From a virus, in IMG/VR virus record IMGVR_UViG_3300045988_131721, positions 72,795-136,794 of that record: a DNA stretch of 64,000 nt. One strand, 5' to 3'. This document shows positions 1,785 through 62,948 of this stretch, piece after piece. Position 1 is the first letter of the stretch; the number at the start of each line of letters is the position of its first letter. A program made the translations under genes and the position numbers. The notes below the pieces were generated by a model. That model did no database searches, had not been told where the DNA came from, and saw only the letters and a list, made by a program, of their open reading frames with translations.

Positions 1785-1798
1785 AAATAATTAATAAA
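1785..1798 (+). repeat. AT-box AAATAATTAATAAA (perfect)
   Basis: Starts right after the stop codon of 1002..1784 and is followed by early promoter/leader unit A. Confidence 0.8.
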
Positions 1799-1808
1799 AA
1801 TTTTAATT

Positions 1809-1860
1809 CATAGGTAAATTTTACTCATTAATTGTTAATATATTAAATATAAGGGGAGTG
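1809..1860 (+). promoter_or_regulatory. early promoter/leader unit A (CATAGGTAA..TGTTAATAT..TATAAGGGGAGTG)
   Basis: One of five similar units. It has the conserved ATAGGTAA box, an extended -10-like TGTTAATAT at 1833-1841, then a strong SD-like leader. Confidence 0.45.
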
Positions 1861-1867
1861 ATGTAAA

Positions 1868-2332
1868 TTGGATGTAATACAAAGGAATAAAACAGAAACG
1901 ATAGATACAATACATGATTTGTTAAATTGTTGGAAATTTAATATAGAAAGTGAATATTCTAATCTAATAGACTTAACTAATATAATTCTAATTGTATCAG
2001 ATAGAGATGTGGATATTATGTTAGATAAGTTATTGACTGTTATTAATACATTTGAAACATCATTATCGTATGATAAAATTAAATGTAAAGATTTTTATTT
2101 AGTTGTGTTGAAATTTTATTTTGATAATTTAGATATTAATATACATCTACAATTTAGAGTAATATCATATGAGAAATATTTAGAATTAACATATCACTTG
2201 AAATATAGTCTTCTATTATTTGATATGAATTATAATAAATTCAAAGAAATTGATTTAGATAAGGCAAAGAAAATAATTAACAAAGAACCAGAGAATATGT
2301 TTATAGATTATGGTATTATTAATTTATATTAA
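1868..2332 (+). CDS. hypothetical protein
   Basis: 154-aa ORF with a TTG start 9 nt after a GGGGAG SD. An ATG-TAA start-stop pair lies between the SD and the start. Confidence 0.6.
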   Translation: MDVIQRNKTETIDTIHDLLNCWKFNIESEYSNLIDLTNIILIVSDRDVDIMLDKLLTVINTFETSLSYDKIKCKDFYLVVLKFYFDNLDINIHLQFRVISYEKYLELTYHLKYSLLLFDMNYNKFKEIDLDKAKKIINKEPENMFIDYGIINLY

Positions 2333-2345
2333 AGGAGGAGATATT

Positions 2346-2726
2346 ATGGAGAAAACATTTCAAGAGGTAATGAATACAATTAAAGAAGGTGAAACATGGA
2401 TTAATAAATATGATGATAGAAGATTGGCAAAAATAGAAAAATCTTCAAATGTTATACATTTTAAATTTAATGGTGAGTTTGAAAAAATTGGTGTCATGTT
2501 AGATGACATATTTGTATTAGACAAGAAAAAATATACTTTTGAGGAGGCTATGAAAGCCTTAAAAGAAGGTAAAGAAATAGAAAGCTGTTATAGTGAAATA
2601 AAGTATGTAATGTCCCCTAAAGGGAATGAAAATGTACATTATTTTGATACAGAATATAATAAATGGAATGAGTGTAGTATGTTTAGTCTTAAAGAAATAT
2701 TCGGTGTTTGGTATATAAATAATTAA
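2346..2726 (+). CDS. DUF2829-like (Tad2-family-like) protein, tandem motif
   Basis: The ATG at 2346 is preceded by AAAGGAGG. There are two copies of TF(Q/E)E(V/A)M..(I/L)KEG(E/K) and a ...FGVWYI tail, reminiscent of the F.EAL.ALK.GK ... DW.I hallmarks of DUF2829. This is from memory only. Confidence 0.4.
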   Translation: MEKTFQEVMNTIKEGETWINKYDDRRLAKIEKSSNVIHFKFNGEFEKIGVMLDDIFVLDKKKYTFEEAMKALKEGKEIESCYSEIKYVMSPKGNENVHYFDTEYNKWNECSMFSLKEIFGVWYINN

Positions 2727-2729
2727 ATT

Positions 2730-2783
2730 CATAGGTAATTTTTATAAAAGTTTTGTTAATATAGTAATATGAAGGAGGTGATA
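2730..2783 (+). promoter_or_regulatory. early promoter/leader unit B
   Basis: CATAGGTAATTT, then 13 nt, then TGTTAATAT (2754-2762), then GAAGGAGGTGAT. Same architecture as units A, C, D and E. Confidence 0.45.
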
Positions 2784-2785
2784 AT

Positions 2786-2875
2786 GTGAATGATAGAGTA
2801 CATAAATGGTTTTACATAGGTTTTTGTTGTTCACTACTTAGTATTTTATTCTTTGTATTAGAAATAATTTTATAA
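2786..2875 (+). CDS. small hydrophobic peptide (29 aa, VNDRVHKWFYIGFCCSLLSILFFVLEIIL)
   Basis: GTG start 7 nt after GGAGG, one predicted transmembrane helix, and a stop that abuts the AT-box before nrdD. Below the 60-aa cutoff of the ORF track. Confidence 0.35.
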   Translation: MNDRVHKWFYIGFCCSLLSILFFVLEIIL

Positions 2876-2889
2876 AAATAATTAATAAA
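2876..2889 (+). repeat. AT-box AAATAATTAATAAA (perfect)
   Basis: Directly abuts the AAGGAG SD of nrdD. Confidence 0.8.
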
Positions 2890-2902
2890 AAGGAGCGATG
2901 TT

Positions 2903-5161
2903 ATGATAGTTAAAAAAAGAAATGGAAATATGGTGGCATTTGATAAAAACAAAATAATAGTAGCTATTCAAAAAGCAATGTTAGAAGTAAATATAAATAC
3001 AGATAGAGCTTATGATATAACTGAAAAGGTGTTAGATAAAATATCAGATAAAAATGAAATATCTATAGAAGAAATCCAAGATATTATTGAAGAAACTTTA
3101 ATAGAAAAAAATTATCCTACAGTAGCTAAAGCATATATACTTTATAGAGAAAAAAGAAAAAGAACTAGAGAGAACCAAGCTAGACTATATGAAGAATCTC
3201 AAAAACAAATATCAGAAATTATGGCAATGAAAAACATAGAAAATTCAAACGCAAATGTGGATGAGGCTTCATTTAGTGGCAAAAATTCCAAGGTAACTTC
3301 TTATTTTTTAAAAGAATATGCTTTGAATAATTTAATGAGACCAGAGGTTGCAAAGGCACATAGAGATGGTTTATTATACACTCACGATTTAGATAATTAT
3401 GCAAGTGGGATGCATAATTGTTTATTTATAGATTTTGAAGATTTATTTAATAATAAAGGTGGTTTTACAACTAGAAATGGTGATGTAAGAAAACCAAATG
3501 ATATTATGACATTTTTTCAATTAGTAGCAGTAACATTTCAATGTGCCTCTCAATGTCAATATGGTGGAATCGCTAGTAATAAAATAGATTATGATGCATC
3601 TCCTTATGTAGCTATAACCTTTAGAAAAAGTTTTAGAAATGCTTTAATGGATATAGATGGAATAAGTAAAGAACACGCAGAATTAATAATGAAAAATATA
3701 GAAGATACCAACGGAGACATTATAAAATTAGAAAATGAAAAGCTTAAATTATTTTATCCTAAACATTACAAAGTTGCAGAAAGACATACTATAGAAAAAA
3801 CCATGCAAGGAGCAGAGTCTTTATACCATAACCTTAATACTCTTGAGTCTAGAGCAGGAAGTCAAGTTCCTTTTACAAGTATAAATTTTGGGACAGACAC
3901 ATCACCAGAAGGAAGATTAGTATCTAAGGCGTTATTGACAGCTAGTATAAATGGTATTGGTAAATTTAATAAAACATCAATATTCCCAATAAGTATATTT
4001 AAATATGCAAAAGGAATAAATGACAAAGAAGGAACTCCAAACTACGATTTAAAATTATTAGCTTTAGAATCTTTATCAAAAAGAATATATCCTAATTTTT
4101 GCAATGTTACAATAGAGGGTGAAGGTGATATAAATGACCCAGATACCCAATCAGCAACTATGGGATGTAGGACGAGATTAGGGTATGATGTAAATGGTAT
4201 GGGTTGGCACAAATCTGGCAGAGGCAATATAACACCTGTAACATTGAATCTTGTTGATATGGGAATTAGACATGGTATCTGTTTAGGTAAAAGAGATGTT
4301 GCAGATATTGACGGATTTATGGATGAATTAGAAGAGAATCTAAAATTATCTGAAACAGCATTATTAGATAGATATGAATGGATTTGTTCTCAAAAATCTA
4401 AAAGTGGATTCTTTACTCATCACAACGGGTTAATGAAGAATCTCTTAGGAAGAACGCTGAAAGATGAAGAAGATGTAAAAGAATCGATGAAACATGGCAC
4501 ATTAGCTTTAGGATATATAGGAATTGCAGAATGTATGTATGCTATGTTTGGTGAAACTCATACATATAATAAAAATGTTTATAATTTTGCATTAAAAATA
4601 GTACAAAGAATCAATTCATTTGCAAAAGAGTGTGTAGAAAGAAATCATCTAAATTTTAGTTGTTATGCTACTCCAGCGGAGGGTAGTTGTTTTACATTAA
4701 GAAATAAATTAGTTGAAAAATATGGTATTATAAAAGGTGTTACAGATAGAGAATACATAACTAACTCACACCATATACCTGTGTATGAAAAAATATCTAT
4801 TAAAAACAAAATAGATTTAGAAGCACCTTTCAGTAAATTAGCGACTGGTGGATATATTTTATATGTTGAATTAGAATCATCTTTTATGAATAATATAACT
4901 GCTGTTGAAAAAATAATAGATTATGCAATGAGTAAAGATGTTTATTATTTTGCATTAAATTTTCCAATAGATACTTGTATGAATTGTGGATATTCTTCAG
5001 AAATAAAAGAAAACTGCCCAAAATGTGGCAGTAATAAAATTGAAAGACTTAGACGTGTCACAGGTTATTTAACTACTGATTATTCTAAATTTAACAATGG
5101 TAAAATAGCTGAAGTAGAAGATAGAGTTAAACATTCTGTTGGTGATATTAATGAATATTAG
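2903..5161 (+). CDS. nrdD: anaerobic ribonucleoside-triphosphate reductase (class III)
   Basis: N-terminal ATP-cone (VKKRNG.MV.FDK.KI), a C-terminal Zn ribbon CMNCG...CPKCG, and the glycyl-radical motif RRVTGYL. Followed by its activase. Confidence 0.95.
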   Translation: MIVKKRNGNMVAFDKNKIIVAIQKAMLEVNINTDRAYDITEKVLDKISDKNEISIEEIQDIIEETLIEKNYPTVAKAYILYREKRKRTRENQARLYEESQKQISEIMAMKNIENSNANVDEASFSGKNSKVTSYFLKEYALNNLMRPEVAKAHRDGLLYTHDLDNYASGMHNCLFIDFEDLFNNKGGFTTRNGDVRKPNDIMTFFQLVAVTFQCASQCQYGGIASNKIDYDASPYVAITFRKSFRNALMDIDGISKEHAELIMKNIEDTNGDIIKLENEKLKLFYPKHYKVAERHTIEKTMQGAESLYHNLNTLESRAGSQVPFTSINFGTDTSPEGRLVSKALLTASINGIGKFNKTSIFPISIFKYAKGINDKEGTPNYDLKLLALESLSKRIYPNFCNVTIEGEGDINDPDTQSATMGCRTRLGYDVNGMGWHKSGRGNITPVTLNLVDMGIRHGICLGKRDVADIDGFMDELEENLKLSETALLDRYEWICSQKSKSGFFTHHNGLMKNLLGRTLKDEEDVKESMKHGTLALGYIGIAECMYAMFGETHTYNKNVYNFALKIVQRINSFAKECVERNHLNFSCYATPAEGSCFTLRNKLVEKYGIIKGVTDREYITNSHHIPVYEKISIKNKIDLEAPFSKLATGGYILYVELESSFMNNITAVEKIIDYAMSKDVYYFALNFPIDTCMNCGYSSEIKENCPKCGSNKIERLRRVTGYLTTDYSKFNNGKIAEVEDRVKHSVGDINEY

Positions 5162-5639
5162 TGGAATAGTGTATGATTCAGTTGTTGATGGAGAAGGTTT
5201 AAGAAATACAATATTTGTATCGGGCTGTTTTCATTTTTGTAAAAACTGCCATAATCCACAAACATGGGACTTTAATTATGGTTATGAGTTTACAGAAGAT
5301 TTACAAGATGAATTTATAGAAAAATGCAAAGAAAATATTTTATTAAATGGAATAACTATAAGTGGGGGAGACCCTATTTATAGTTATCGAGAATTAATTC
5401 CTTTTTTAAAGAAGTATAAAAAGAAAAATCCCACACACGATATTTGGTTATATACTGGATTCAAATATGAGGGTATAAAAAACAATGAAATATTAAAATT
5501 AATAGATGTTTTAGTTGACGGAGAATATATAGAAGAATTAAAGGATTCAACATTGTCTTTTAGAGGTAGTAGTAATCAAAGAATTATAGACGTGCAAAAA
5601 AGTTTAAAAGAAAATAAAGTAATATTATTGAATATATAA
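5151..5639 (+). CDS. nrdG: anaerobic ribonucleotide reductase activating protein (radical SAM)
   Basis: CFHFCKNC (CxxxCxxC) cluster motif and adjacency to nrdD. The likely start is ATG 5151 (MNISG...) after GGTGAT, overlapping the end of nrdD. Confidence 0.9.
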   Translation: MNISGIVYDSVVDGEGLRNTIFVSGCFHFCKNCHNPQTWDFNYGYEFTEDLQDEFIEKCKENILLNGITISGGDPIYSYRELIPFLKKYKKKNPTHDIWLYTGFKYEGIKNNEILKLIDVLVDGEYIEELKDSTLSFRGSSNQRIIDVQKSLKENKVILLNI

Positions 5640-5644
5640 ATTAA

Positions 5645-5658
5645 AAATAATTAATAAA
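5645..5658 (+). repeat. AT-box AAATAATTAATAAA (perfect)
   Basis: Lies after the nrdG stop and runs straight into promoter/leader unit C. Confidence 0.8.
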
Positions 5659-5716
5659 CATAGGTAATTTTTATATCAGTTTTGTTAATACACTACTATA
5701 AGAAAAGGAGGTGATA
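5659..5716 (+). promoter_or_regulatory. early promoter/leader unit C
   Basis: CATAGGTAATTT..TGTTAATAC (5683-5691)..TATAAGAAAAGGAGGTGAT. The perfect SD is not followed by a real ORF (TTG-TAA); the next gene starts about 70 nt further on. Confidence 0.45.
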
Positions 5717-5784
5717 ATATTGTAAGATGAAATCATTCTAAATAAAACATTAATAAAAATAACAAATTTTAAGGAGATGATGTT

Positions 5785-6021
5785 ATGGTAATGATTTTTA
5801 TAGATTCAAAAATAGAACATCTGCAAGAAATCGTAGGGCAAAGAGTTAGTTTGGATTTTGATAGTATGACAGGTGAATTATATATTAATGCATTACAAAC
5901 AGGAAAATATATCAAATTATCATCTAATATAAATATAAATAATGAAGGTAGATATGTAATAATTTCAGATAATGATAATAATAGTTTATTTATAATGAAA
6001 GATTTAAATGAGGAGGAGTAA
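5785..6021 (+). CDS. hypothetical protein
   Basis: 78-aa ORF with an AAGGAG SD 8 nt upstream. Confidence 0.6.
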   Translation: MVMIFIDSKIEHLQEIVGQRVSLDFDSMTGELYINALQTGKYIKLSSNININNEGRYVIISDNDNNSLFIMKDLNEEE

Positions 6022-6028
6022 ATATAAT

Positions 6029-6751
6029 ATGAATATAAAAGTAGGAGATAAAGTTAGAATAAAAGAAGATTTGAGTGAATGTGAATTTGGATATTGTGGT
6101 TATATGGAAGAGTTTGCAGGTAAAGAGACAACTGTAATAAGTACTTTTGGTAAAGGTGTGATAAAGTTAGATATAGATGAACAAGTCTGGGATTGGTCAG
6201 AAAATGTATTAGAATTAATAGAGGAAGGAAAAACAATGAAAATGAAAAGAATAGATTATATATTAAATGCCAGAGATAACATACAAGCGATACTAGATGA
6301 AACAGTACTAGATTGCGATATATGTCCAGCTTCTTGTGAGAACTGTAATGGTAATTGCGAGTTTCATTATAAAAAATATCTAAATGAAGAAATAGAAGTA
6401 AATGAATCAGATTTAAAAGACGTTGGGGTTAAAGAAGAATTAGATACAAAAGAGAATATAGTTAACGACACTGTAAATCCATTTATGGAAGAATATGAAA
6501 AAATAGTAATGGATACAATGGAATTGTGTAAACGTAAAAATAAAGATTATGGTAATGCAACAGATGAATCATTTAAACAATTCGGTGATGTAAGTTATTT
6601 GGTAAGATGTTTTGATAAATGGAGTAGAATAAATACATTATTAAAAAATAGAAAAGCCGAGGTATCTGAATCCCTAGAGGACAGTTTATTAGACCTTAGT
6701 AACTACTTATTCCTTTGGGTTACAAGTAGAAGATTAAAAGAAAATAATTAA
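6029..6751 (+). CDS. two-domain protein: N-terminal GDKVRI..EDL small-barrel-like module plus C-terminal DUF1599-like helical domain
   Basis: The start is placed at MNIKVGDKVRIKEDL by analogy with the paralogous modules at 8425 and 9632. The C-terminal KNKDYGNA...FGD...VR..DK..R...L pattern resembles DUF1599, which is associated with nucleotide metabolism and modification. From memory only. Confidence 0.45.
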   Translation: MNIKVGDKVRIKEDLSECEFGYCGYMEEFAGKETTVISTFGKGVIKLDIDEQVWDWSENVLELIEEGKTMKMKRIDYILNARDNIQAILDETVLDCDICPASCENCNGNCEFHYKKYLNEEIEVNESDLKDVGVKEELDTKENIVNDTVNPFMEEYEKIVMDTMELCKRKNKDYGNATDESFKQFGDVSYLVRCFDKWSRINTLLKNRKAEVSESLEDSLLDLSNYLFLWVTSRRLKENN

Positions 6752-6825
6752 TCAATGCAAGGTGATGTTATGAGCAAAAAATTGATAGGATAGGAGAAAA
6801 AAGATTTAATAATTTTGGGAGCGAA

Positions 6826-7911: not shown

Positions 7912-8409
7912 GTGATTATTATACCAAATAAAAGTAATAAAATAGGTGCTAAATTTGAAAATAGATTAACAAAACAATTTGAAAAATATAGAAAAGAAGG
8001 AAAGGCTTATATATTTAAGATTCCAACTGAATTTATAGTATTAAGAAAAGGAGCTAAAATCGTATCGGCTTTTCCTAAAAAACAATCACCTTGTCTGGAT
8101 TACATAGGTATATTACCTAATGGAAAAAGCATAGTATTTGAGGCTAAAACAACAGCTAACAAAACTTCTTTTCCTCTTTCAAATATAAAAGACTATCAAT
8201 ATGATTTAATTGATGAGATTCAAAACTATGCAAATAATGTATTCTTTATAATAGAATTTAGAGAATTTAAAGAAGTGTATTTAGTGAGTGGGCTAGCAAT
8301 CAAAAAGTTTAAAGAAAATAACAAGCGTAAGAGTATACCATATAAAGAGTTTAAAAATATAGGTATATTAATGAACGATTTAGATGTATTAAAATATATA
8401 AATTATTAA
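7912..8409 (+). CDS. recU: RecU-like Holliday junction resolvase
   Basis: G.KFE..L......Y...GKA.I.K.PT ... LDYIG.L..GK...FEAKTT.NKTSFPL.NI...Q matches the RecU/PBP-related factor A pattern. The start is ambiguous: GTG 7912 sits directly against the SD, so a nearby non-canonical start is possible. Confidence 0.65.
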   Translation: MIIIPNKSNKIGAKFENRLTKQFEKYRKEGKAYIFKIPTEFIVLRKGAKIVSAFPKKQSPCLDYIGILPNGKSIVFEAKTTANKTSFPLSNIKDYQYDLIDEIQNYANNVFFIIEFREFKEVYLVSGLAIKKFKENNKRKSIPYKEFKNIGILMNDLDVLKYINY

Positions 8410-8424
8410 TAAAGGAGAGATGTA

Positions 8425-9165
8425 ATGAGTAAATTTAAGATTGGTGATAAAGTGAGAATAAGAGAAGATTTAAATGAATATAATTTCCATGATATAATAC
8501 CAGAAATGTTAAAATATGCAGGGAAGGAATTTGAAATAATAGATATACGTTATAATGCTATCTTTGGCGAATGTTATGTGTTAAACGATGTTAATTATTT
8601 TTGGTATGGAGATGCGTTAGAATTAGTAAATGAATCAGAAATTAAAATATTAGGTGTTGATTATACAACAAGCACATTAAAAATAGAAGAAAGTGTCTCA
8701 CAAAAAGTAAGGGGATTTGAAATTGTGTCTAATGAATTTAGAAAACATCCAAATGTAGATATAAGAATACCTACACGTGCCACTAGTGAATCAGCAGGAT
8801 ATGATATATCTACTCCAATAGATATTAAAATACCACCTCATGGTATATCCGAAGCAATACAAACAGATATCAAAGCATATATGTTATATAATGAATATTT
8901 GGAAATAGTACCTAGAAGTAGCATTGGATTTAAAAAAGGATTAATGTTAGTAAATACATGTGGAATTATAGATAGTGATTATTATGGTAATCCAGATAAT
9001 GATGGGAATATAGGGTTTAAATTTAAAAATTTAACAGATAAAACAGTAGAAATAAAAGCAGGAGAAAGAATTTTGCAAGGGATATTCAAGAAATATTTAT
9101 TAGCAGATGAAGATAATTGTAATATAATTAGAAAGAGTGGGATTGGTTCGTCGGGTACTAAATAA
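8425..9165 (+). CDS. dut: dUTPase with about 100-aa N-terminal GDKVRI..EDL module
   Basis: Trimeric dUTPase motifs SAGYDI, PRSS and GIIDSDYYG are present. The N-terminal MSKFKIGDKVRIREDL...YAGKEFEI...ALELV is paralogous to 6029 and 9632. Confidence 0.85.
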   Translation: MSKFKIGDKVRIREDLNEYNFHDIIPEMLKYAGKEFEIIDIRYNAIFGECYVLNDVNYFWYGDALELVNESEIKILGVDYTTSTLKIEESVSQKVRGFEIVSNEFRKHPNVDIRIPTRATSESAGYDISTPIDIKIPPHGISEAIQTDIKAYMLYNEYLEIVPRSSIGFKKGLMLVNTCGIIDSDYYGNPDNDGNIGFKFKNLTDKTVEIKAGERILQGIFKKYLLADEDNCNIIRKSGIGSSGTK

Positions 9166-9179
9166 AAATAATTAATAAA
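9166..9179 (+). repeat. AT-box AAATAATTAATAAA (perfect)
   Basis: Starts right after the dut stop and is followed by promoter/leader unit D. Confidence 0.8.
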
Positions 9180-11341: not shown

Positions 11342-12172
11342 TTATATAATTTCTAAATATTTTTTATTGACAAACCCATAATCTGTATTTGTATAAACAG
11401 ATACCCATCCATTCAATGAATATCCTATAGTTACAATTTCACCTTTCTTTAATACAAATTTAACTTTACCTAAATTACCATTTTTATCTGGTCGTGTATC
11501 TCTAACATTTAAAGTTGTACAATTAATTACTCTTGCTTGAACATTATAAGCCTTCTTGTCTTCTATTGTCTTATCAACAACTTTTTCTTCTCCAATTACA
11601 CTGTTACCTTTTCCATTGGTACAATTTCTTATGTTTGATTCTTTTAATTTTCCTATCATATAGTTATAACAATCTAATTTAAATTGTTCCCATTGAGATT
11701 TATGATTTACAAAGTATCTTGGACAAATTTTACCTGTAACATCGTAATGTCTTATAAAATCTTTTCTAGGGTCTAACCCGTATAATTTAGCTAACCAAGC
11801 ACCTGTTTTAATCATTGAAACATATTCTTTGTCAGTGTAATGGTCGTCTGAACCTGTTGTTGCACATTCTACTCCTACACTATAAGCATTTGCACTATTT
11901 GTTGTATAAGCTATTTCGTTAAATGGAATTATATGATATATTTCTCCTTCAAGTCCCATAACTAAATGAGAACTAGCGTATATATATCTACCATTTACTC
12001 TATATCCATTAGCTACAACGTTAGAAAAATAACTTACTGTATTTTTAGCAGAAACATCATGTTGTCCTGTAAAATGCCATGCTATTTTAGTTGTTCTTCT
12101 TCTTTTAGTTCCAGGTCTCCCATATTTATTGATTTTCATAAATTTTTCTATCATTTCTGGTTTTTGTACCAT
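11342..12172 (-). CDS. endolysin: N-acetylmuramoyl-L-alanine amidase (Amidase_2/PGRP-like) with C-terminal SH3-like cell-wall-binding domain
   Basis: The AWHFTG...SSH...YSVGVECA pattern is typical of Amidase_2. The C-terminal NVRD...G.....LKKGE.V......NGW..V is SH3_3-like. Sits next to the holin. Confidence 0.85.
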   Translation of the reverse strand: MVQKPEMIEKFMKINKYGRPGTKRRRTTKIAWHFTGQHDVSAKNTVSYFSNVVANGYRVNGRYIYASSHLVMGLEGEIYHIIPFNEIAYTTNSANAYSVGVECATTGSDDHYTDKEYVSMIKTGAWLAKLYGLDPRKDFIRHYDVTGKICPRYFVNHKSQWEQFKLDCYNYMIGKLKESNIRNCTNGKGNSVIGEEKVVDKTIEDKKAYNVQARVINCTTLNVRDTRPDKNGNLGKVKFVLKKGEIVTIGYSLNGWVSVYTNTDYGFVNKKYLEII

Positions 12173-12190
12173 ATTAATCAACTCCTTTAT

Positions 12191-12300: not shown

Positions 12301-12314
12301 AAATAATTAATAAA
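12301..12314 (+). repeat. AT-box AAATAATTAATAAA (perfect) in inverted orientation relative to the surrounding leftward genes
   Basis: This is the only perfect copy whose orientation opposes the local transcription direction. Confidence 0.8.
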
Positions 12315-12386
12315 GTTTTTGGAATATAATTTTGACAAAATTTATCCTTACTTTATTATAACACTTCACATCTTATTTTACAATAA

Positions 12387-12653
12387 TTATTTTTCGTCTT
12401 TATTAATTAAATTTCTATAAGCTTCATACAATCCTGTACTTGCTAATCCTGTAATTAAACCACTTAAAATTACATTAAAATCATAACTTTGAGCATTAAC
12501 TATTGCAACAAGCATACCTACAATTCCCATAATTAAAGGTATATATCTATTTGGTATTTTAGGTATTGAAGTTTTAATTATATATCCAATCACCAAACAA
12601 AATAACATCACACCACCATTTATTAAACTCATGTATAAATCTAAATCAATCAT
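12387..12653 (-). CDS. holin
   Basis: 88 aa with 2-3 transmembrane helices and a charged C-terminus (NKDEK). Immediately upstream of the endolysin. Confidence 0.65.
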   Translation of the reverse strand: MIDLDLYMSLINGGVMLFCLVIGYIIKTSIPKIPNRYIPLIMGIVGMLVAIVNAQSYDFNVILSGLITGLASTGLYEAYRNLINKDEK

Positions 12654-12943
12654 TATTCATTTCCTCCTTTTTCATGTTGTTTCATATCTCTAATATCCAT
12701 TTTTAAATCACTCATATCATGTTTTAAGTCATCAATTTTTACATTTGTATCTCTTACTTCATTACTTATTTCTTTTATCGTTAATGAGAACTCATTTACA
12801 GTTTTATGAAATTCTTCTACTGAAGTTTTATATAAGTCTCTATTTTGATTATCCTCATTTAAAACTTGTTGTATTAAAATCCATACCAATATTACAAAAA
12901 CTCCCATTGCACCATAATTACTCAACACCTCCAATAAATCCAT
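12653..12943 (-). CDS. BhlA/UviB-like holin-associated membrane protein
   Basis: N-terminal transmembrane helix followed by a coiled-coil region. Likely start is MDLLEV after AAAGGTGG. Lies in the lysis cassette. Confidence 0.45.
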   Translation of the reverse strand: MDLLEVLSNYGAMGVFVILVWILIQQVLNEDNQNRDLYKTSVEEFHKTVNEFSLTIKEISNEVRDTNVKIDDLKHDMSDLKMDIRDMKQHEKGGNE

Positions 12944-12960
12944 TATTAGCACCACCTTTC

Positions 12961-12974
12961 TTTATTAATTATTT
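12961..12974 (-). repeat. AT-box (perfect, gene-sense AAATAATTAATAAA)
   Basis: Abuts the GAAAGGTGG SD of 12653..12943. Confidence 0.8.
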
Positions 12975-18817: not shown

Positions 18818-18842
18818 ATTATACCTCCTTTATTAACTTTTA

Positions 18843-18878
18843 GCAAAAATAAAAGAAGAGGAAAATAATCCTCTTCTT
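18843..18878 (-). terminator. intrinsic terminator upstream of the GH25 gene
   Basis: Leftward sense AAGAAGAGGA-TTATTT-TCCTCTTCTT followed by TTATTTTT. Confidence 0.65.
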
Positions 18879-18960
18879 AAAATAGAAATAATTAAATTTT
18901 TGAATAACAACATGGTTGTTTTTATAGACATTAATATTATGTGTTTTTTATTTAATTTAG

Positions 18961-18986
18961 ATACACAATATTTTTAAATTGTGTAT
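18961..18986. repeat. post-stop palindromic site ATACACAAT-ATTTTTAA-ATTGTGTAT
   Basis: 9-bp perfect arms. Abuts the stop codon of 18986..20767. Confidence 0.8.
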
Positions 18987-22046: not shown

Positions 22047-22292
22047 TTAAATATCTACTTCTAAATCATATTTAATCCAATTTATAAAATTTGATACATC
22101 CTCAATACCATATCCTTGTTCTAATGAATTTTCAGATAAAAATTCTTCCCTAATTAATCTACTTAGAAATAATCTAAATTCATCCTCTGATAAATTTAAT
22201 AAATATTTTTTAATATCTTCTTTTGAATGATTTATTCCACTATCTGTTGCTCCAGTATCATAAGCAAATTTTTCTAATATTTTATCTTTCAT
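22047..22292 (-). CDS. small acidic hypothetical protein
   Basis: 81-aa ORF with a good SD. Confidence 0.55.
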   Translation of the reverse strand: MKDKILEKFAYDTGATDSGINHSKEDIKKYLLNLSEDEFRLFLSRLIREEFLSENSLEQGYGIEDVSNFINWIKYDLEVDI

Positions 22293-35822: not shown

Positions 35823-36266
35823 CTATATAACATCTAAACCTTGCTCTATTAAATATCTTTTTAATTCAGTTGGTATTTGTTGAGCTATTTTAACTTGTGA
35901 ATCTGGTATAATCGTTGTTGGAGGATAATAAGCAACCGTAGAATCACTTTTAAAACTCCAAACTTTACCTGCTTCCCAACCTATAATTGGAAAGAAATGT
36001 TCTCCCGTTAATACACTTGTCCAATCTCCATTATCTTGAAATTCTACTACAGCACAATTCATATCAATACTCGATATTTGTGCTATTTCTCCCATTTGTC
36101 CTGTACGTTCATATACAGATGGTTCATGGTCAGCATATATTTGTTCATTTACTTCTCGTTGCATTATCTCTACCATTTTATTTGCCATAGGTGTCATAGC
36201 AGTAGAAACAACGGATTTAATATAATTGACTGCACTTTCAATATCATTTACAACCAAATTAATCAC
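35823..36266 (-). CDS. tail assembly protein (possible T-part of a chaperone pair or HK97 gp10-like)
   Basis: Overlaps the upstream ORF by 8 nt. Its frame opens only 9 nt before its GTG, across an AAAAAAG run. Confidence 0.4.
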   Translation of the reverse strand: MINLVVNDIESAVNYIKSVVSTAMTPMANKMVEIMQREVNEQIYADHEPSVYERTGQMGEIAQISSIDMNCAVVEFQDNGDWTSVLTGEHFFPIIGWEAGKVWSFKSDSTVAYYPPTTIIPDSQVKIAQQIPTELKRYLIEQGLDVI

Positions 36267-36723
36267 CTTTTTTCATTTCTTGTATTTCCTCTTCCAATTT
36301 TTCACATTGTTTATTTAATATTTCTAATTTTTCAGCCTCTAATAATATTCTTTTGCTTAAAGTTAATGAAGTCATATTTGCTAATAGATTTTGTTTTTCT
36401 AACATTACTTCTATAACAATTTCACTTACTATTTCGTCTACATCTTGTGCAATAAACATTAATTCTTTTTTACCTTTATTTATTGATTCTATTAAATCTT
36501 CGTCTAATTCTAAATCAGTAGCCAATTCAAATGCTTCCTTGTATATAAGTTCCATTAATGCTTTTTCTTCTAATCCTTGTTCTAGTCCTTTAGATATTTT
36601 TTCTTTTAATTCATTTCTATTCTCACCAAATATATTATAAACTAAAACAGTTTCTATTTCGTTATTTACTTCCACATCATATGAACTTCTAATCATATCT
36701 AATGTTAAATCACTTAATTTCAT
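36259..36723 (-). CDS. tail assembly chaperone-like acidic protein
   Basis: 154-aa acidic helical protein just upstream of the tape measure. Ends ...EMKKGD on an A6G run. Confidence 0.5.
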   Translation of the reverse strand: MKLSDLTLDMIRSSYDVEVNNEIETVLVYNIFGENRNELKEKISKGLEQGLEEKALMELIYKEAFELATDLELDEDLIESINKGKKELMFIAQDVDEIVSEIVIEVMLEKQNLLANMTSLTLSKRILLEAEKLEILNKQCEKLEEEIQEMKKGD

Positions 36724-36739: not shown

Positions 36740-36753
36740 TTTATTAATTATTT
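36740..36753 (-). repeat. AT-box (perfect)
   Basis: Abuts the GAAGGGAG SD of 36259..36723. Confidence 0.8.
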
Positions 36754-45484: not shown

Positions 45485-45515
45485 AAAAAAATATGGGGAC
45501 ATTTCTGCCCCCATA
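45485..45515 (-). terminator. strong intrinsic terminator after the major tail protein gene
   Basis: Leftward TATGGGG-GCAGAAATGT-CCCCATA followed by TTTTTTT. Confidence 0.75.
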
Positions 45516-45523: not shown

Positions 45524-45537
45524 TTTATTAATTATTT
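45524..45537 (-). repeat. AT-box (perfect)
   Basis: Begins right after the stop codon of 45538..46047 and is followed by the terminator. Confidence 0.8.
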
Positions 45538-46047
45538 TTACACACTTGTTTTATCTTCTTCAAATGTCATAAAATCTCCATTTGTATCAGTACCTATATC
45601 AAAAGTTACAGAATAAGTTTGTAAATCTAATGAACTTGTACCAAAGTCTTCAGTTATTTGTGGAGTACAATTAGCTATTGTTGCATTTAATATTTTTCTT
45701 GTACCGTCTGGGAATTTTAATTTCATTTTTCCTGTATAAGTATAAGTAGTAGATGGAGAATCACCTATATGTACTTTACCTTCTGCATCTTTTGTAGCTC
45801 CTAAAGTAATTAAAAACATATCAAAATTCATAACTTCCATTTCTGCTGTGAAAGTCATAGCTTTATTTGCTTTTAATGTTATTTTATTTTTACCATCAGC
45901 TCTAGCATTTAAAGTATCTTCTGATTGACCTAAATTAAATGCATTTACATAATCTAACGCTACGTCTTTTTCTGTTCCAGTTTCACCGTTTGGATGAAGT
46001 TTACCTTGCATAGCACCTTCTATTACGAATAAAGTTTCTTGTGCCAT
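45538..46047 (-). CDS. major tail (tube) protein
   Basis: 169 aa with a beta-rich composition and a strong SD, followed by a strong terminator. Lies downstream of the head-tail connector genes. Confidence 0.55.
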   Translation of the reverse strand: MAQETLFVIEGAMQGKLHPNGETGTEKDVALDYVNAFNLGQSEDTLNARADGKNKITLKANKAMTFTAEMEVMNFDMFLITLGATKDAEGKVHIGDSPSTTYTYTGKMKLKFPDGTRKILNATIANCTPQITEDFGTSSLDLQTYSVTFDIGTDTNGDFMTFEEDKTSV

Positions 46048-46063: not shown

Positions 46064-46077
46064 TTTATTAATTATTT
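46064..46077 (-). repeat. AT-box (perfect)
   Basis: Overlaps the stop of 46076..46816 and abuts the ACGGAGG SD of the major tail protein gene. Confidence 0.8.
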
Positions 46078-46816
46078 ATTCATCCCTCATTAGTCTTGTA
46101 CCCATATACCAAGGAGGAATTTCTTTACCTTTATATGCTCCTGCAATAGCAAGTTTCCAAGCCAATTCGCAATCTTCCATTGCTTTCATTGATTTATAAG
46201 TGTCTTGTAATTGCCAAGCAGTCCAATTTTTTATTTCTTCATACGTAGTTTTTCTTGTATGTATCACTTGTCTTACTATTTCTTCAAAATATATAGCATT
46301 TCTTTTTATTTGTTTTTCTTTGTATTCTTTTTCATACTTTTCAAACAATGCTATATCTTCAGCCGAACCTTCAATCTTTTGCTTGATTTCTTTTTTAGGT
46401 TCATCATAATACATTATTTCTAAAACAATTTTAGACAATATATTAAAATTACTATCGTCTATAAAAGATTCAATATTATCTTGAGATTTAATAAATATAC
46501 TATATCCTTTATCTCCACAATTTTTTAACTTTATATCTTTCGTATCATATAAAATCATAAGATATAATATTAAATCTATTAATAAAGATTTATTCTTTTG
46601 AGATAAAGTATAATATATATTAAAAGGCATTTCCACTTCTTCAAAAGCACCATTATTATTCCAATATCGAACCATATAAAAAGGTTTTATAAATTCTATA
46701 CTATCTACCACCTCTATAAAGGTTTGAACCTTGGGTTGTTTAATAATGCCTAAATTAAATTCTTTTAAATCAATATCTTTACCAGATAATAACTCTTTAG
46801 TGAATTTACATTTCAT
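46076..46816 (-). CDS. hypothetical head-tail/tail-completion module protein
   Basis: 246-aa ORF overlapping the upstream gene by 11 nt. Confidence 0.5.
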   Translation of the reverse strand: MKCKFTKELLSGKDIDLKEFNLGIIKQPKVQTFIEVVDSIEFIKPFYMVRYWNNNGAFEEVEMPFNIYYTLSQKNKSLLIDLILYLMILYDTKDIKLKNCGDKGYSIFIKSQDNIESFIDDSNFNILSKIVLEIMYYDEPKKEIKQKIEGSAEDIALFEKYEKEYKEKQIKRNAIYFEEIVRQVIHTRKTTYEEIKNWTAWQLQDTYKSMKAMEDCELAWKLAIAGAYKGKEIPPWYMGTRLMRDE

Positions 46817-50427: not shown

Positions 50428-50441
50428 TTTATTAATTATTT
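50428..50441 (-). repeat. AT-box (perfect)
   Basis: Lies between the stop of 50447..50953 and the capsid gene SD. Confidence 0.8.
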
Positions 50442-53316: not shown

Positions 53317-54309
53317 CTATCCTAAATTTAATTCTTTTATTAATATTCCTTCTATATTATCCATGTCATAATACCAAATTTCTAATAAATTAATATTATG
53401 TTCTTTAGCATAATTTCTTTTTCTTTTATCATGCTCTAATTGTCTTTCAAAATCCTTCTTTGACATCCAGGTCTTTTGCCATGATTTATGTTGTTCTCCT
53501 TGACATTCTATTAATAAATTATAATCTGGTAAATAAAAATCGTATGATAAATTGCCATTTCCTAATCCTAACAATCCCTCATATTTTACTTGTGTCTTAT
53601 AATTAATATTATATTTTTCTAATATATTTTTAGTTTTTGTTTCTAATTGTGAAGAATTACAATTTATGCAAATAACACCTGTATCAGCTCGATTTAAAAC
53701 TTTTAATTCCCTCTCAAATTCACTTCCACATTCTTGACATATAAATTTATATTTTTTATGACTCTTAGGAGTGACTTCATAAGAAGATTTATCATTATTA
53801 GGAGACCAATACTTCGCTTTATCGGGATATAAAGTACCAAAACTATCTAAAGGATGTACTTTACCTCGTCTAGTGCTACAATACGGACATCTATCACCTC
53901 TCGAAAACTGATGTCCCGTAGTTTTATAACTCCCATGTTGATTATTTTTGACACACTTTATATAAACTATTTTTTTAGCACCCTTATAAATCAGATAAGG
54001 ATTTAATTCATTCTTTTTCCAATCCCAGTATTTATTTAAAGGTTCTTTTAATTCTTGTTGAATATAATAGGCAAAACTATTTTCATAAGCATTACAGCAA
54101 TTGGTACATTTATCTTTTCTATTTATAAAACTATATTTAACGACGTCATATTCCTCATCACAATAAGGACATTTAACTCTAATATAAGTAGCATTATGTT
54201 TTTCATTCTTCATATCCATAGTTGTTTCATTTTTATGATAACTTCCTATATAAACATATCCGTCTCCACGATTTTCAACTCTTTCTTTGTGCTTTTCATT
54301 AAAATACAT
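53317..54309 (-). CDS. multi-zinc-ribbon protein with C-terminal PD-(D/E)xK (DUF559/Vsr-like) endonuclease fold
   Basis: Several CPYC...C..C ribbons, each followed by a YW(D/S).(K/N)N-type motif. The C-terminal YDFYLPDYNLLIECQGEQH is typical of DUF559-type nucleases. Likely a free-standing homing-type nuclease. Confidence 0.6.
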   Translation of the reverse strand: MYFNEKHKERVENRGDGYVYIGSYHKNETTMDMKNEKHNATYIRVKCPYCDEEYDVVKYSFINRKDKCTNCCNAYENSFAYYIQQELKEPLNKYWDWKKNELNPYLIYKGAKKIVYIKCVKNNQHGSYKTTGHQFSRGDRCPYCSTRRGKVHPLDSFGTLYPDKAKYWSPNNDKSSYEVTPKSHKKYKFICQECGSEFERELKVLNRADTGVICINCNSSQLETKTKNILEKYNINYKTQVKYEGLLGLGNGNLSYDFYLPDYNLLIECQGEQHKSWQKTWMSKKDFERQLEHDKRKRNYAKEHNINLLEIWYYDMDNIEGILIKELNLG

Positions 54310-54327: not shown

Positions 54328-54341
54328 TTTATTAATTATTT
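54328..54341 (-). repeat. AT-box (perfect)
   Basis: Overlaps the stop of 54336..54512, upstream of the SD of 53317..54309. Confidence 0.8.
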
Positions 54342-54512
54342 TTTATTCCACTTATTTAATGCTAAATCTAAATCTTTATCTCTCATAAATACCCAAAATG
54401 TTTTATGATTATTGGGATTTAATCCACAAACATAATATTTAAGTCCTTCATTTATTAAAAAATTTTTTTGCTTAGCATCATAACATATATATAATGGATT
54501 TTTATATTTCAT
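54336..54512 (-). CDS. small DUF5659-like protein (58 aa, MKYKNPLYICYDAKQKNFLINEGLKYY...)
   Basis: ATG follows TAAGGAGG. Not in the ORF track because it is under 60 aa. Confidence 0.5.
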   Translation of the reverse strand: MKYKNPLYICYDAKQKNFLINEGLKYYVCGLNPNNHKTFWVFMRDKDLDLALNKWNKK

Positions 54513-60461: not shown

Positions 60462-60478
60462 TACTCTTTTCCTCCCGT

Positions 60479-60781
60479 TTAAAATTCTAAAACAGATTCA
60501 CTTGTTGTTGCAACAACCACATCGCTTCCAAACAAACCTTTCAATACTAATTCTAAATCATCTATTAATAAATCTGTGTTTCTTCCTTTCATAACTATTT
60601 CAAAATTATTTCTATTCACCACTATCGGTTCTGGTATTTCTAATGCCATTTCTTTTGCTTTATCTAATATGTATTTTTTACTTTGTTCTGTAGCACATAT
60701 TATGGGAGAATCAAGGATAGCAGATAATTTTATCAAGTGGAAAGTTTTGCCATTTCCTCTATCCATTCTTAAAATTTTCAT
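60479..60781 (-). CDS. small P-loop-like protein
   Basis: GNGKT (Walker A-like) and LLIDDLE (Walker B-like) in only 100 aa. Confidence 0.35.
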   Translation of the reverse strand: MKILRMDRGNGKTFHLIKLSAILDSPIICATEQSKKYILDKAKEMALEIPEPIVVNRNNFEIVMKGRNTDLLIDDLELVLKGLFGSDVVVATTSESVLEF

Positions 60782-60801
60782 ATTTATCCTCCCTTTATTA
60801 A

Positions 60802-61104
60802 TTATTCTTCTATTCTTTCTTTTACAGATTTTTTAAGTCTAACTTTTACAGTAACTTTATCATCTGTTTTATAAGGTGTAACTTGTCCTTCTTTAGTTTT
60901 TAATACACCTTCTCTACCTTTTTGTATCTTCTTATCAACTAGAAACATTCCCATACTAACTGTGTCTCCTACTTCCATTTGTTGATATATTGAAGAAACA
61001 GTATCTTCTAATCCTTTTAATATTTCTCTAGCCTCTGCTTGAGATACTTTTAAGCCTCTTTCTTCTAAAGCTCCTTGTAATTCTTTTACTACGTTTATTT
61101 CCAT
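60802..61104 (-). CDS. HU/IHF-like DNA-binding protein
   Basis: Length and pattern (helical N-terminus, GD.V...G.F, beta-arm with Lys/Arg, ...V.VR..KK.K) resemble bacterial histone-like proteins. Confidence 0.5.
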   Translation of the reverse strand: MEINVVKELQGALEERGLKVSQAEAREILKGLEDTVSSIYQQMEVGDTVSMGMFLVDKKIQKGREGVLKTKEGQVTPYKTDDKVTVKVRLKKSVKERIEE

Positions 61105-61156
61105 AAAACATACCCCCTTAATAAATTATAAAATATTAATAAAAATAACAAATATT

Positions 61157-61176
61157 GTAGGCTTTTTTAGCCTTAC
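61157..61176 (-). terminator. small hairpin after the regulator gene
   Basis: GTAAGGCT-AAAAA-AGCCTAC with a bulge, followed by T-rich sequence. A TATAAT (61125-61130, leftward) follows it, before the HU-like gene. Confidence 0.35.
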
Positions 61177-61242
61177 ACAAAATACGCTATTTATACTAGG
61201 AAAAAAGTAGTATATTTTGCACACTTTTAAAATATTCTATTT

Positions 61243-62421
61243 TTATCGGCATTTTTTACATATAGATAATACTCCTTTACTTCCATTTTTATTAAATTTA
61301 TTAATCAATTTAACTTCACCACATTTATTACAACGTTTATATTCTCCTTTTCTTATATTTAAATAATACCAATTTTCCAATTTTTCTTCATATACCTCAA
61401 CTATTTTATTAACTATTCTGTCTAAATATTTACTCACTGTACCTACGCTTTTATTTAACTCTTTAGCTATTTTACTAACCGTCATACCTTTCATCCATAA
61501 ATTTAATAATTCCTCTTGTTTTTCAGTTAATTTAACCTCATTGAGTACATCTTCTAAATCTTTAAATATACATCCTAAATCGCTTTGAAAATCATACACT
61601 TCTAATTCTCTATATAATTGCAATAAAGCTTTCATATGAGTAGAATCCAATTCATCAAGTTCGTCCCAATCGGGCTCCCCTGCATCTTTTAATGGAGCTT
61701 TCCAAACAATAGGTCTTGCTAATTCTATTTTTGCTTGTAGCATGTCTTTTTTAAGTTCTCCTATGTGGTTTACTAAAAATGATTTAGCTTGTCTTTCCGT
61801 TTTAATCTTAGTGTGTCCTTTGTTTTGCATGTACTCCATAAACTCATCCAATCTATCTTCTCTTATGTAAGAACTCAATCTATCTATTTCTTTTTTATAT
61901 TCTCTTAACTCTGGATAATTTTTTAAATCTTCAGCTGTAACTTTTTCATCTTTAGCTTTCTTGTAATTTTCTTTTCTCCTTAATATAATAACACCATCAT
62001 CTACCGATTCTCCATATGTATCAAAATATTTTCTATCTTTAGATATAGCATCTTGAAATTTCTTTTCATTGTCATATATTTTAATATGTTCTTTCTTTTT
62101 TTTATTAGGGTCACACCACATTATATAATTTGCTATAGCTTCCAAAGTCTTTGCTATATTTGATTCAGAATATAATTCTGTTTCTGAATTAGGCATTAAA
62201 TCAATATAACTTGTTTTATTAATACGTTGAACGAATATTTCATTCCAAAATTCATCGTTACTAAATTCTGTTCCATTTTCATCTTTCACTACATTTAATA
62301 AATCATATACATATTGTATTCTCTCTTCTAAATCATTTATATTTGTATCTAATTTTGCATAATCATATATACCCTTTTTATCTATTTTGCTAAAAAATCT
62401 ATTGAAATATACTCTTGACAT
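61243..62421 (-). CDS. transcription regulator: sigma-70 region-4/LuxR-type HTH plus C-terminal zinc ribbon (candidate late-gene activator)
   Basis: LTEKQEELLNLWMKGMTVSKIAKELNKSVGTVSKYLDRIVNKI is a classic region-4-type HTH. The C-terminus is CNKCG...CKKC. Confidence 0.55.
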   Translation of the reverse strand: MSRVYFNRFFSKIDKKGIYDYAKLDTNINDLEERIQYVYDLLNVVKDENGTEFSNDEFWNEIFVQRINKTSYIDLMPNSETELYSESNIAKTLEAIANYIMWCDPNKKKKEHIKIYDNEKKFQDAISKDRKYFDTYGESVDDGVIILRRKENYKKAKDEKVTAEDLKNYPELREYKKEIDRLSSYIREDRLDEFMEYMQNKGHTKIKTERQAKSFLVNHIGELKKDMLQAKIELARPIVWKAPLKDAGEPDWDELDELDSTHMKALLQLYRELEVYDFQSDLGCIFKDLEDVLNEVKLTEKQEELLNLWMKGMTVSKIAKELNKSVGTVSKYLDRIVNKIVEVYEEKLENWYYLNIRKGEYKRCNKCGEVKLINKFNKNGSKGVLSICKKCR

Positions 62422-62436
62422 TTTATCCACCCCTAT

Positions 62437-62450
62437 TTTATTAATTATTT
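62437..62450 (-). repeat. AT-box (perfect)
   Basis: Overlaps the stop at 62445-47, upstream of the ATAGGGGTGG SD of the regulator gene. Confidence 0.8.
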
Positions 62451-62920
62451 ACAAAGTATTTCTTCAATCATATCCTCATCTTTTAACCATTCGATAGGTA
62501 ATAAATATCCTTTAGCATTATCTCCCATATCTATTTGAGAATATTTATTTTTATAAGAGTGTATAAATTTTTTTACACTCTTGATATCCATTTTATATAT
62601 CTTTTGATTTTCATATATATACCAAAATACATAATCAGCTTTTGTTTTTCTAAACATCCTATTGTGTTATTTTTTATATTACTTCGATATTCATAGGGTA
62701 AATTTCCTGTCTTATGCGCCTCATAATCGGTTTTAATTTCTATATTTAATTTTTCCCCATTACTAAATATAACAATAAAATCTATATCCATATCTCTATA
62801 TTTTTCATCATCTCTAACATCGATGACATTATTGACATTAGATAAATTAATAAAATAATTATATATTATATTTTCTCCTATTTCCCCTCTTTCAATATCT
62901 TCTTTGAATTTATAATTCAT
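62445..62920 (-). pseudogene. PD-(D/E)xK nuclease-like gene split by a -1 frameshift at an A5 run (or a programmed/assembly frameshift)
   Basis: ORFs 62573..62920 and 62445..62657 overlap. Joining them at GAAAAAC (62644-62650) gives one continuous protein: ...DIDFIV...IEIKTD...TGNLPYEY...GCLEK|TKADYVFWYIY... Confidence 0.55.
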
Positions 62921-62934
62921 ATATTAATCTCCTT

Positions 62935-62948
62935 TTTATTAATTATTT
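62935..62948 (-). repeat. AT-box (perfect)
   Basis: Lies just after the stop of 62950..63108 and abuts the AAGGAG SD of the nuclease gene. Confidence 0.8.

Follow-up and report, generated by a model that had tools for sequence, protein, structure and literature searches.

A 14-nucleotide word at the gene junctions of an uncultured gut phage as a possible operator array for an integrase-fold repressor

The 64,000-nucleotide stretch examined here (the window, C1:72795-136794, which forms the right-hand 64 kb of the 136,794-bp virus contig IMGVR_UViG_3300045988_131721; 26.1% GC) carries a 14-nucleotide word, AAATAATTAATAAA (hereafter the box), that recurs at gene junctions on both strands. On the strength of sequence comparison, structure modelling and analogy with characterized phages, we propose that the box may be the operator word of an expanded, stoperator-like array addressed by the phage's own master repressor (a protein of the SroF type with an integrase fold), a reading to which we assign a probability of roughly 0.5. 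We infer that a phage-encoded protein of 290 amino acids (aa) would bind the box, that its binding would repress, and that the copies situated inside operons would bring transcript elongation to a stop. The initial annotation of the window had not recognised the box as a described element; this holds for the word itself, which is undescribed (in the searchable literature its exact form was met only in an unrelated plant promoter paper), but not for the kind of element, since the SroF box of SPbeta-like phages (SPBRE) is a close analogue and stoperator-like arrays are likewise known. What distinguishes the present array is its 6-8-fold expansion into operons and late genes, the double use of the box as supplier of stop codons and as mosaic joint, and its occurrence in uncultured Firmicutes gut phage-plasmids.

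Exact searches returned 13 copies of the box in the window, every one at the coordinate and on the strand first reported, as compared to a mean of 0.08 (maximum 2) in dinucleotide-preserving shuffles; the shuffled control that had been suggested at the outset thus reached 13 copies in none of 100 trials. The scale had been understated by looking at the window only, as the whole 136.8-kb phage genome harbors 66 exact copies, 78 occurrences of the 12-mer core AATAATTAATAA and 32 copies with one mismatch (mostly a changed first or last letter), about half of which stand in contexts like those of the exact ones. The three near-perfect copies listed earlier proved to be one-mismatch forms on the minus strand (at 60794, 63342 and 63486), and six of the seven looser variants match with one or two mismatches, the seventh (at ~18827) exceeding two. 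The extended consensus, T-[A/G]-A-AAATAATTAATAAA-(A), covers ~17 bp and is asymmetric and A-tract-rich. The 14-mer is a perfect mirror repeat (AATAA-TT-AATAA) and has no dyad symmetry beyond the central TAATTA, a geometry that makes the core site of a tyrosine recombinase an unlikely identity for it. Tandem boxes with a period of 13 nt occur at genome 9774-9813 (three in a row from 9774, the first with one mismatch), and at genome 16708-16778 two tandem boxes are followed by a TTGGCA -35-like hexamer and then by a third box at the would-be -10.

By a simple gene call (177 genes, 87.5% coding), 65 of the 66 copies lie outside coding sequence or overlap a stop codon only, the lone box within a gene encoding K-I-I-N-K; an equal frequency inside genes, which the initial annotation had named as evidence against a junction element, is therefore not what the genome presents. 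All copies except the one at window position 12301 are co-oriented with their flanking genes. An open reading frame (ORF) of at least 45 codons ends no more than 60 nt upstream of 52 of the 66 copies, and at 29 copies the upstream stop codon is either a TAA just ahead of the box or the box's own TAA at offset +3 or +7 (the TAAs of the box closing two of the three reading frames). The elements that follow the box were classified automatically and then curated by eye against the sequences, with the following outcome:

Sigma-A-type promoter: ~21 copies
Phage-type promoter, ATAGGTAA..GTTAATA: 4 copies
Shine-Dalgarno (SD) site, with the start codon 12-18 nt past the box: ~32 copies
GC-rich hairpin or terminator: ~6 copies
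Tandem partner box: 2 copies
Box within coding sequence: 1 copy

This distribution contradicts the idea that the box, which contains AATAAT, is itself a phage promoter of the T7 or T4-late kind, as ~6 copies run at once into a hairpin or terminator and 21 stand upstream of complete sigma-A promoters. A polar motif of the KOPS/SRS type for the FtsK-like protein of the phage is likewise disfavored. Box orientation is divergent near Rep_3 and convergent at the lysis cassette, a pattern that cannot be separated from the orientation of the genes, and motifs of this type are not kept out of coding sequence as 65 of 66 boxes are.

The relation of the box to promoters is tight. Of the 17 intergenic promoters that combine a perfect TTGACA with a good -10, 15 have a box (core with at most one mismatch) within 25 nt upstream, as against 0 of 33 TTGACA promoter matches inside coding sequence; both boxless promoters are situated in the Rep_3 and non-coding maintenance region. 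The distance between the end of the core and the -35 (measured in this genome and in five whole relatives) has its mode at 5-6 nt and a second mode at 16-18 nt, so that the box ends 4-5 nt upstream of the -35 or about one helical turn further away. A second promoter-like family, (C)ATAGGTAATTTT-N-GTTAATA, which probably represents middle promoters for the phage's own sigma factors, counts 17 copies and has the box ahead of only four; its members are placed as follows:

1811, plus strand: phage-type promoter
2732, plus strand: phage-type promoter
5661, plus strand: phage-type promoter
9192, plus strand: phage-type promoter
63929, minus strand: phage-type promoter
Elsewhere in the genome: 12 more

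As the box precedes 15 of 17 promoters of the sigma-A type and 4 of 17 of the phage type, it tracks those promoters that the host RNA polymerase could fire in a lysogen. We consider that this points to a function at the DNA level, tied to host-type promoters, since neither an RNA signal nor a generic AT-rich tract would show such geometry and preference.

The candidate reader of the box is encoded outside the window (genome 22219-23091), directly upstream of the gene for the ANT antirepressor, and its gene is flanked by boxes at 22085 (with promoters downstream) and 23189. The 290-aa protein has no Pfam match above threshold (Phage_integrase included); its best phmmer matches in the PDB are phi3T SroF and SPbeta YopR/MrpR (E 0.008-0.02), and a profile of 16 family members matches 9RD5 (the SroF-phi3T-DNA complex) at E 2.6e-6. 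With its AlphaFold2 model (mean predicted local distance difference test score 88.8) as query, the top 7 Foldseek matches are all SroF/YopR/MrpR, the template modelling score being 0.61 to DNA-bound SroF vs ~0.38 to Xer/Cre, at 13-16% identity in the fold alignments with SroF/MrpR-family proteins. Furthermore, PF22823 (MrpR_C_cat) is found as a precomputed annotation on homologues of the candidate, and the candidate itself has no H-x-x-R motif, whereas the neighbouring Xer-like protein has HDLR. Judged by sequence profile and predicted fold, the phage has in this protein a remote member of the SroF/MrpR (YopR) family of DNA-binding proteins with an integrase fold. Recognition by a phage factor, one of the roles offered in the initial annotation, is the best-supported class of explanation, with the amendment that the likely factor would be a repressor of the SroF/MrpR family and neither the HTH (helix-turn-helix)/Zn-ribbon regulator nor the HU-like protein that had been put forward.

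The experimental precedent comes from two related phages: SPbeta, whose MrpR/YopR occupies the 15-bp SPBRE in about ten scattered promoter regions (ChAP-seq peaks) and represses them (PMC10516654), and phi3T, where SroF acts as a monomeric clamp on a 26-bp asymmetric AT-rich box with two A-tracts, 24 bp of which are read (bioRxiv 10.1101/2025.11.27.690993). Extracted from the SPbeta sequence, SPBRE reads (C)AAATACAAAWAATATGTATAT and has eight copies in the first 100 kb, all in gene sense, which lie 6-7 nt upstream of the -35 (aimR, yonX), over the -10 (yonT, yorE, yonP) or against the SD (the second yonX site, yopM, yopV). By its portal, capsid, terminase and other genes our phage belongs among the large SPbeta/phiCD211-like siphoviruses, and so the supergroup is shared (SPbeta-like and phiCD211-like phages being among those with related capsid and portal proteins), as is, by prediction, the SroF-family integrase-fold protein. 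Both words are asymmetric, AT-rich and A-tract-bearing, dispersed between genes in gene sense, and located a few nucleotides upstream of the -35 or at the SD, and one SPBRE variant has AAATAAT in common with the box. The two systems differ in that 66-85 copies are present here vs ~10 in SPbeta, that 41 of the copies here are not at promoters (many follow stop codons or lead into terminators, within operons and among late structural genes), and that the word here, a perfect mirror repeat of 14-17 bp vs 15-26 bp, has another sequence and a predicted binding.

The exact word is carried by 16 of 16 IMG/VR relatives (portal 81-96% identical), and in each of the 11 with a completeness of 90% or more there are 63-85 copies, arranged in the same two-arm strand pattern. 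By contrast, phiCD211 (26.4% GC, 131.7 kb, same supergroup) lacks both the 14-mer and the 12-mer and repeats none of its own 14-mers beyond four times, its most frequent 12-mer being palindromic, inconsistent in context and uninformative. Present in all relatives and absent from phiCD211, the word is clade-specific and not a product of base composition. The exact box was kept in 84 of 86 box-by-relative comparisons with both flanks colinear, where per-site identity is 91-94% over the flanking 60 nt (from which ~31% retention would be expected) and 99-100% in the box columns; this amounts to strong evidence for purifying selection on the box, not formally quantified and drawn from phylogenetically non-independent relatives. 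With growing distance of the SroF-like protein the word changes as well:

97-95% identity (G002, G003, G006): identical 14-mer
59-60% identity (G008, G011, L058, L059): identical 14-mer
48% identity (L062): core AATAATTAATAA with other flanks
37% identity (L061): AAATATAAAATTAATAAAAT
40% identity (L063): GTAYAAAATAAATAAA
35% identity (L065, a Terrisporobacter-type element of ~120 kb): GTAAAATTAATAAAA

All words of these divergent relatives are in gene sense, ahead of TTGACA, an SD or a hairpin. Three smaller phages with SroF-like alleles of 30-33% identity have no highly repeated word, and the large box arrays are confined to a subgroup of SroF-like carriers. In L061, L063 and L065 the MrpR_C_cat gene has an Xer-like Phage_integrase gene as its immediate upstream neighbour, and in L062 the two are one gene apart, an arrangement that recalls yopP...yopR in SPbeta; in the genome studied here ~3 kb of other genes lie between the two.

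Since the word changes with lineage, a host factor as its reader is excluded, which bears on two alternatives. One is a generic AT-rich element for host factors (an UP element for the C-terminal domain of the alpha subunit, or an S1 binding tract) made uniform by the copying and pasting of cassettes, without any specific reader. The composition (A/T-rich, with A-tracts) and the position at 21 promoters would agree with an UP element; such elements tolerate much variation, and the box, with 66 identical copies, near-complete retention at orthologous sites and other exact words in sister lineages, is exact far past their degeneracy and has ~41 copies with no promoter downstream, so that we regard this explanation as very improbable. 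The other treats the box as RNA-level punctuation, AAAUAAUUAAUAAA, which would act in the polycistronic mRNA as a stop in several frames, as an unstructured AU-rich tract that enhances translation or offers a standby site ahead of the SD, or as a processing site for an endoribonuclease. It would account for the constant sense-strand placement, for the ~32 copies that abut an SD, for the 29 that supply or abut a stop codon, and for the box ahead of the putative capsid gene and of the virion structural gene 45538..46047. It does not account for the 25 copies held at a fixed distance upstream of a promoter -35 and thus outside the downstream transcript, nor for the closure of only two of three frames or the lack of any box in phiCD211 at equal composition, and host ribosomes or RNases would not require different exact words in sister lineages; we therefore deem it improbable. 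Of the translation enhancer or stop box first suggested, the observation survives that half of the boxes supply or abut a stop codon, and the purely RNA role does not, given the promoter-upstream copies and the lineage-specific words.

On the assumption that the operator reading is accurate, the array would work as follows. In the dormant state the box at a host sigma-A promoter would be bound by the monomeric repressor, whose clamp footprint of ~24 bp would reach the -35 and block initiation; at the junctions of stop codon, box and SD within operons the protein, once bound, would form a polar roadblock against read-through, in the way stoperators do. An asymmetric monomeric clamp would also explain that the word is non-palindromic and locked to one strand. 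Furthermore, each exchangeable promoter-gene cassette would have to bring its own operator, so the box would mark cassette borders, and being the only sequence common to all cassettes it would be the place where homologous exchange between related phages resolves; the position at cassette borders and the mosaic joints would both arise because each cassette carries its own operator as the only shared homology.

Several observations weigh against this proposal. The copy number of 66-85 is 6-8 times that of SPbeta and far above precedent, and the candidate resembles YopR only weakly when sequence is taken by itself (E ~0.02). A box stands ahead of the partition-operon promoter (genome 32729), and a plasmid-prophage should express partition; at the ~6 boxes that lead directly into a hairpin or terminator a roadblock seems redundant; and from its position (-41 to -54, in helical phase) the box could serve an activator or act as an UP element just as well. 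Moreover, SroF-like genes without a highly repeated word exist in phiCD211 (114139-115119, minus strand, a hypothetical protein that is a clear homologue with profile E 1.6e-37) and in L066-L068, so that the gene alone predicts no array. Allele-specific co-variation of word and protein was looked for and not found, as alleles of 59-60% identity (G008, G011) use the identical 14-mer and only a graded, lineage-level co-divergence is seen; the differing words of the farther lineages could reflect repressor co-evolution or plain lineage drift, the data fitting either.

Some of these points would be equally at home with a DNA site for another phage factor, such as an activator of early promoters or a sigma-associated factor, an antiterminator loading site or a nucleoid organiser of the HU type. 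The range from -41 to -54 with a second, helically phased mode is the classical position for class I activators, the phage encodes several sigma factors, and the lineage-specific exact words argue for a phage-encoded reader without identifying which, and SroF-like alleles of 59-60% identity share one word. No specific candidate emerged for such a factor, and SroF/MrpR is the only experimentally established reader of boxes of this kind in the supergroup, with a predicted homologue present here; we consider another factor rather unlikely.

The association of the box with genome mosaicism was analysed against five whole relatives. Ends of homology blocks fall within 5 nt of a box in 10-17% of cases vs 1.1% for random positions, with a pile-up at the 3' edge of the box (16 events) and in the 5 nt preceding its 5' edge. 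Mosaic arrangements (one homologous flank, or non-colinear flanks) make up 68% of the informative comparisons at boxes vs 41% at boxless gene starts, and flanks that are present yet non-colinear make up 47/325 vs 10/485, a class inflated in part by endonuclease paralogs and by repeated promoters. Once intergenic gaps exceed 30 nt, breakpoints are about as frequent without a box as with one. The association is thus real but moderate, mosaic joints being common at all gene junctions in the group. At window position 54328, four related loci are ~95% identical through the last letter of the box and unrelated beyond it, and at the orthologous site of L009 and L015 (~11650-11740) a 56-nt phage-type promoter cassette lies between the full box and a partial box, TAATTAATAAAATATT, which looks like the footprint of box-to-box recombination or slippage. 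As a correlate, the linker for module exchange that the initial annotation had listed among its roles is supported, homology breaking exactly at the box edges.

Whether the linker is the primary function, with the 14-mer serving short-homology exchange of promoter-gene cassettes between phages or within the genome and regulation secondary or absent, is a separate matter. The block ends at the box edges, the excess of mosaic and non-colinear flanks and the cassette at 54328 are what it predicts, and the same word is present in all exchanging relatives, with two frames closed by TAA and the upstream stop supplied or abutted in 29 copies. Set against this, boxless junctions are mosaic too, the gap-length comparison shows equal rates, the non-colinear counts carry the inflation mentioned above, and 14 bp is short for homologous recombination. 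Furthermore, the exact retention at core-core junctions (84/86 vs ~31% expected) points to a direct function in each genome, and neither the helically phased -35 spacing nor the sigma-A preference is predicted. We hold a primary linker function unlikely. A dual-purpose 'regulated cassette joint', in which the operator word would also be the universal joint for the gain, loss and shuffling of cassettes in these ~135-kb gut phage-plasmids, appears to us no better than an outside chance, and the exchange might even be site-specifically catalysed by the Xer-like recombinase or by the integrase-fold protein itself. If true, it would represent an integron-like or PeSL (promoter-early stem-loop)-like cassette system in Firmicutes phages, with silencing and mobility coded in one 14-mer.

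Beyond the SPbeta group, a parallel to the proposed operator array is offered by Cluster A mycobacteriophages, whose stoperators are asymmetric 13-mers, over 20 in number, that occupy promoters and short intergenic spaces, follow transcription in their orientation and are bound by a monomeric repressor (PMC9283540). The box resembles them in the number (above 20), asymmetry and ~13-bp length of its sites, in their location in short intergenic spaces and their orientation along transcription, in a comparable density of about one site per 2 kb, and in the many copies that match the consensus exactly. It would be an analogue and not a member, given that the L5 gp71-type repressor combines an HTH with a 'stoperator' domain vs the integrase-like clamp predicted here. 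Host and lineage are unrelated (Actinobacteria, 50-kb genomes), the stoperator sites are GC-rich, and the elongation block and its orientation dependence, which we infer, were demonstrated experimentally there. Repeated regulatory motifs that flank small variable genes and coincide with the joints of modular shuffling form another point of comparison. Such are reportedly the PeSL cassettes of T4-type phages (Arbiol et al. 2010) and the boundary sequences of lambdoid phages (Clark et al. 2001); a PeSL is said to comprise a whole early promoter and a stem-loop, whereas the box is a 14-nt word apart from the promoter, without stem-loop, and present also at conserved core-gene junctions. The start-associated sequences (SAS) of Cluster K mycobacteriophages (reportedly a conserved 13-bp gene-sense word immediately upstream of many starts; Pope et al. 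2011) are similar as short conserved gene-sense words ahead of many start codons, and differ in that SAS are said to include the ribosome-binding site and to be linked to starts only, the box excluding the SD and preceding promoters or terminators in 40% of cases.

If the operator reading is correct, the integrase-fold repressors of SPbeta-like phages, a recent discovery, would be confined neither to Bacillus nor to arrays of about ten operators, the logic of SPbeta would have been scaled to a genome-wide silencing grid in an uncultured clade of ~135-kb gut phages, and a functional convergence with mycobacteriophage stoperators would have taken place on an unrelated protein fold. It would also offer a concrete case of one short word that couples gene silencing to modular genome evolution. 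The word and its lineage variants provide a simple marker for gene and cassette boundaries and for immunity groups in these metagenomic phages.

The individual copies in the window are the following (relatives refers to the five whole relatives):

1785..1798, plus strand: exact box, abutting the stop codon (TAA) of gene 1002..1784, an AP2/HNH endonuclease; 11 nt downstream begins a promoter of the phage type, ATAGGTAA..GTTAATA
2876..2889, plus strand: exact box, 1 nt ahead of the SD AGGAG of the nrdD-like gene 2903..5161
5645..5658, plus strand: exact box, 1 nt ahead of the phage-type promoter ATAGGTAA-N-GTTAATA
9166..9179, plus strand: exact box, directly 3' of the TAA stop of 8425..9165; phage-type promoter 11 nt downstream
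12301..12314, plus strand: exact box, inverted vs the flanking lysis genes (both minus), between the endolysin gene 11342..12181 (minus) and 12387..12653 (minus)
12961..12974, minus strand: exact box, 2 nt ahead of the SD of the holin gene 12653..12955
36740..36753, minus strand: exact box whose TAA (offset +7) is the stop of the upstream ORF; then the SD of 36259..36723
45524..45537, minus strand: exact box, directly 3' of the TAA stop of 45538..46047; then a GC-rich hairpin and T-run (~45485-45515); kept in 4/5 relatives
46064..46077, minus strand: exact box, overlapping the stop of 46076..46816, 2 nt ahead of the SD of 45538..46047; kept in 5/5 relatives
50428..50441, minus strand: exact box, 2 nt ahead of the SD of the putative major capsid gene (relative of a phiCD211 structural protein); kept in 5/5 relatives
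54328..54341, minus strand: exact box that gives the stop codon to the small ORF 54336..54512
62437..62450, minus strand: exact box, 2 nt ahead of the SD of the phage sigma-factor gene 61243..62430
62935..62948, minus strand: exact box, 1 nt ahead of the SD of 62573..62920
60794..60807, minus strand: one-mismatch box GAATAATTAATAAA, then GGGAGG and ATG
63342..63355, minus strand: one-mismatch box TAATAATTAATAAA, then GGTGGTG and ATG
63486..63499, minus strand: one-mismatch box AAATAATTAATACA
8400..8413, plus strand: one-mismatch box AAATTATTAATAAA, abutting the SD GGAGAG and ATG of 8425..9165
6742..6755, plus strand: one-mismatch box AAATAATTAATCAA, over the stop of 6008..6751

The placements initially described stand up: eight copies are at an SD (2876, 12961, 36740, 46064, 50428, 54328, 62437 and 62935), three lie ahead of ATAGGTAA..GTTAATA promoter units (1785, 5645 and 9166), and the copy at 12301 is indeed inverted relative to the lysis genes. 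The copy at 45524 does lie between a gene stop and a hairpin with T-run, but the gene called 'major tail protein' (45538..46047) is by PHROGs only a 'virion structural protein'. Seventeen nt past the inverted box at 12301 there is, on the plus strand, a promoter-like site, TTGACA-N16-TATTAT (~12332), directed antisense into the holin genes; judging from its sequence, it would yield an RNA antisense to these genes, possibly for antisense lysis control or in a type-I-toxin-like arrangement. Box and promoter-like site (12301-12370, plus strand) are conserved in G008 and G011 only.

The gene content makes it plausible that the phage is a temperate phage-plasmid with a prophage maintained as a plasmid. 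The genome encodes a Rep_3 initiator (2634-3590), an FtsK/SpoIIIE-like protein (4657-5787), an Xer-like tyrosine recombinase (18127-19023, with an intact HDLR), a ParM-like partition protein with a small partner (33078-34248) and the ANT/KilAC antirepressor besides the several sigma factors, and beside the plasmid-type genes no gene was called over 2.3 kb (6.5-8.8 kb); one relative is classed as a provirus. The clue to the host is one short contig of a metagenome-assembled genome labelled 'uncultured Firmicutes bacterium', and a megablast of 10 kb against GenBank phages gave no match. The AP2/HNH family comprises the window gene 1002..1784 and ~7 paralogs, copies of which often end with ...EIDD and the stop codon directly against a box; a homing-endonuclease target or footprint was nonetheless rejected as the identity of the box, most boxes being elsewhere. 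Another set of paralogous free-standing genes, of the pattern MY(F/Y/Q)NE(E/K)HK...RGDGY.YIGSY, is found at window 53317..54309 (minus strand) and at genome 47329-48804 and 51999-53252, and from their sequences these look like homing endonucleases.

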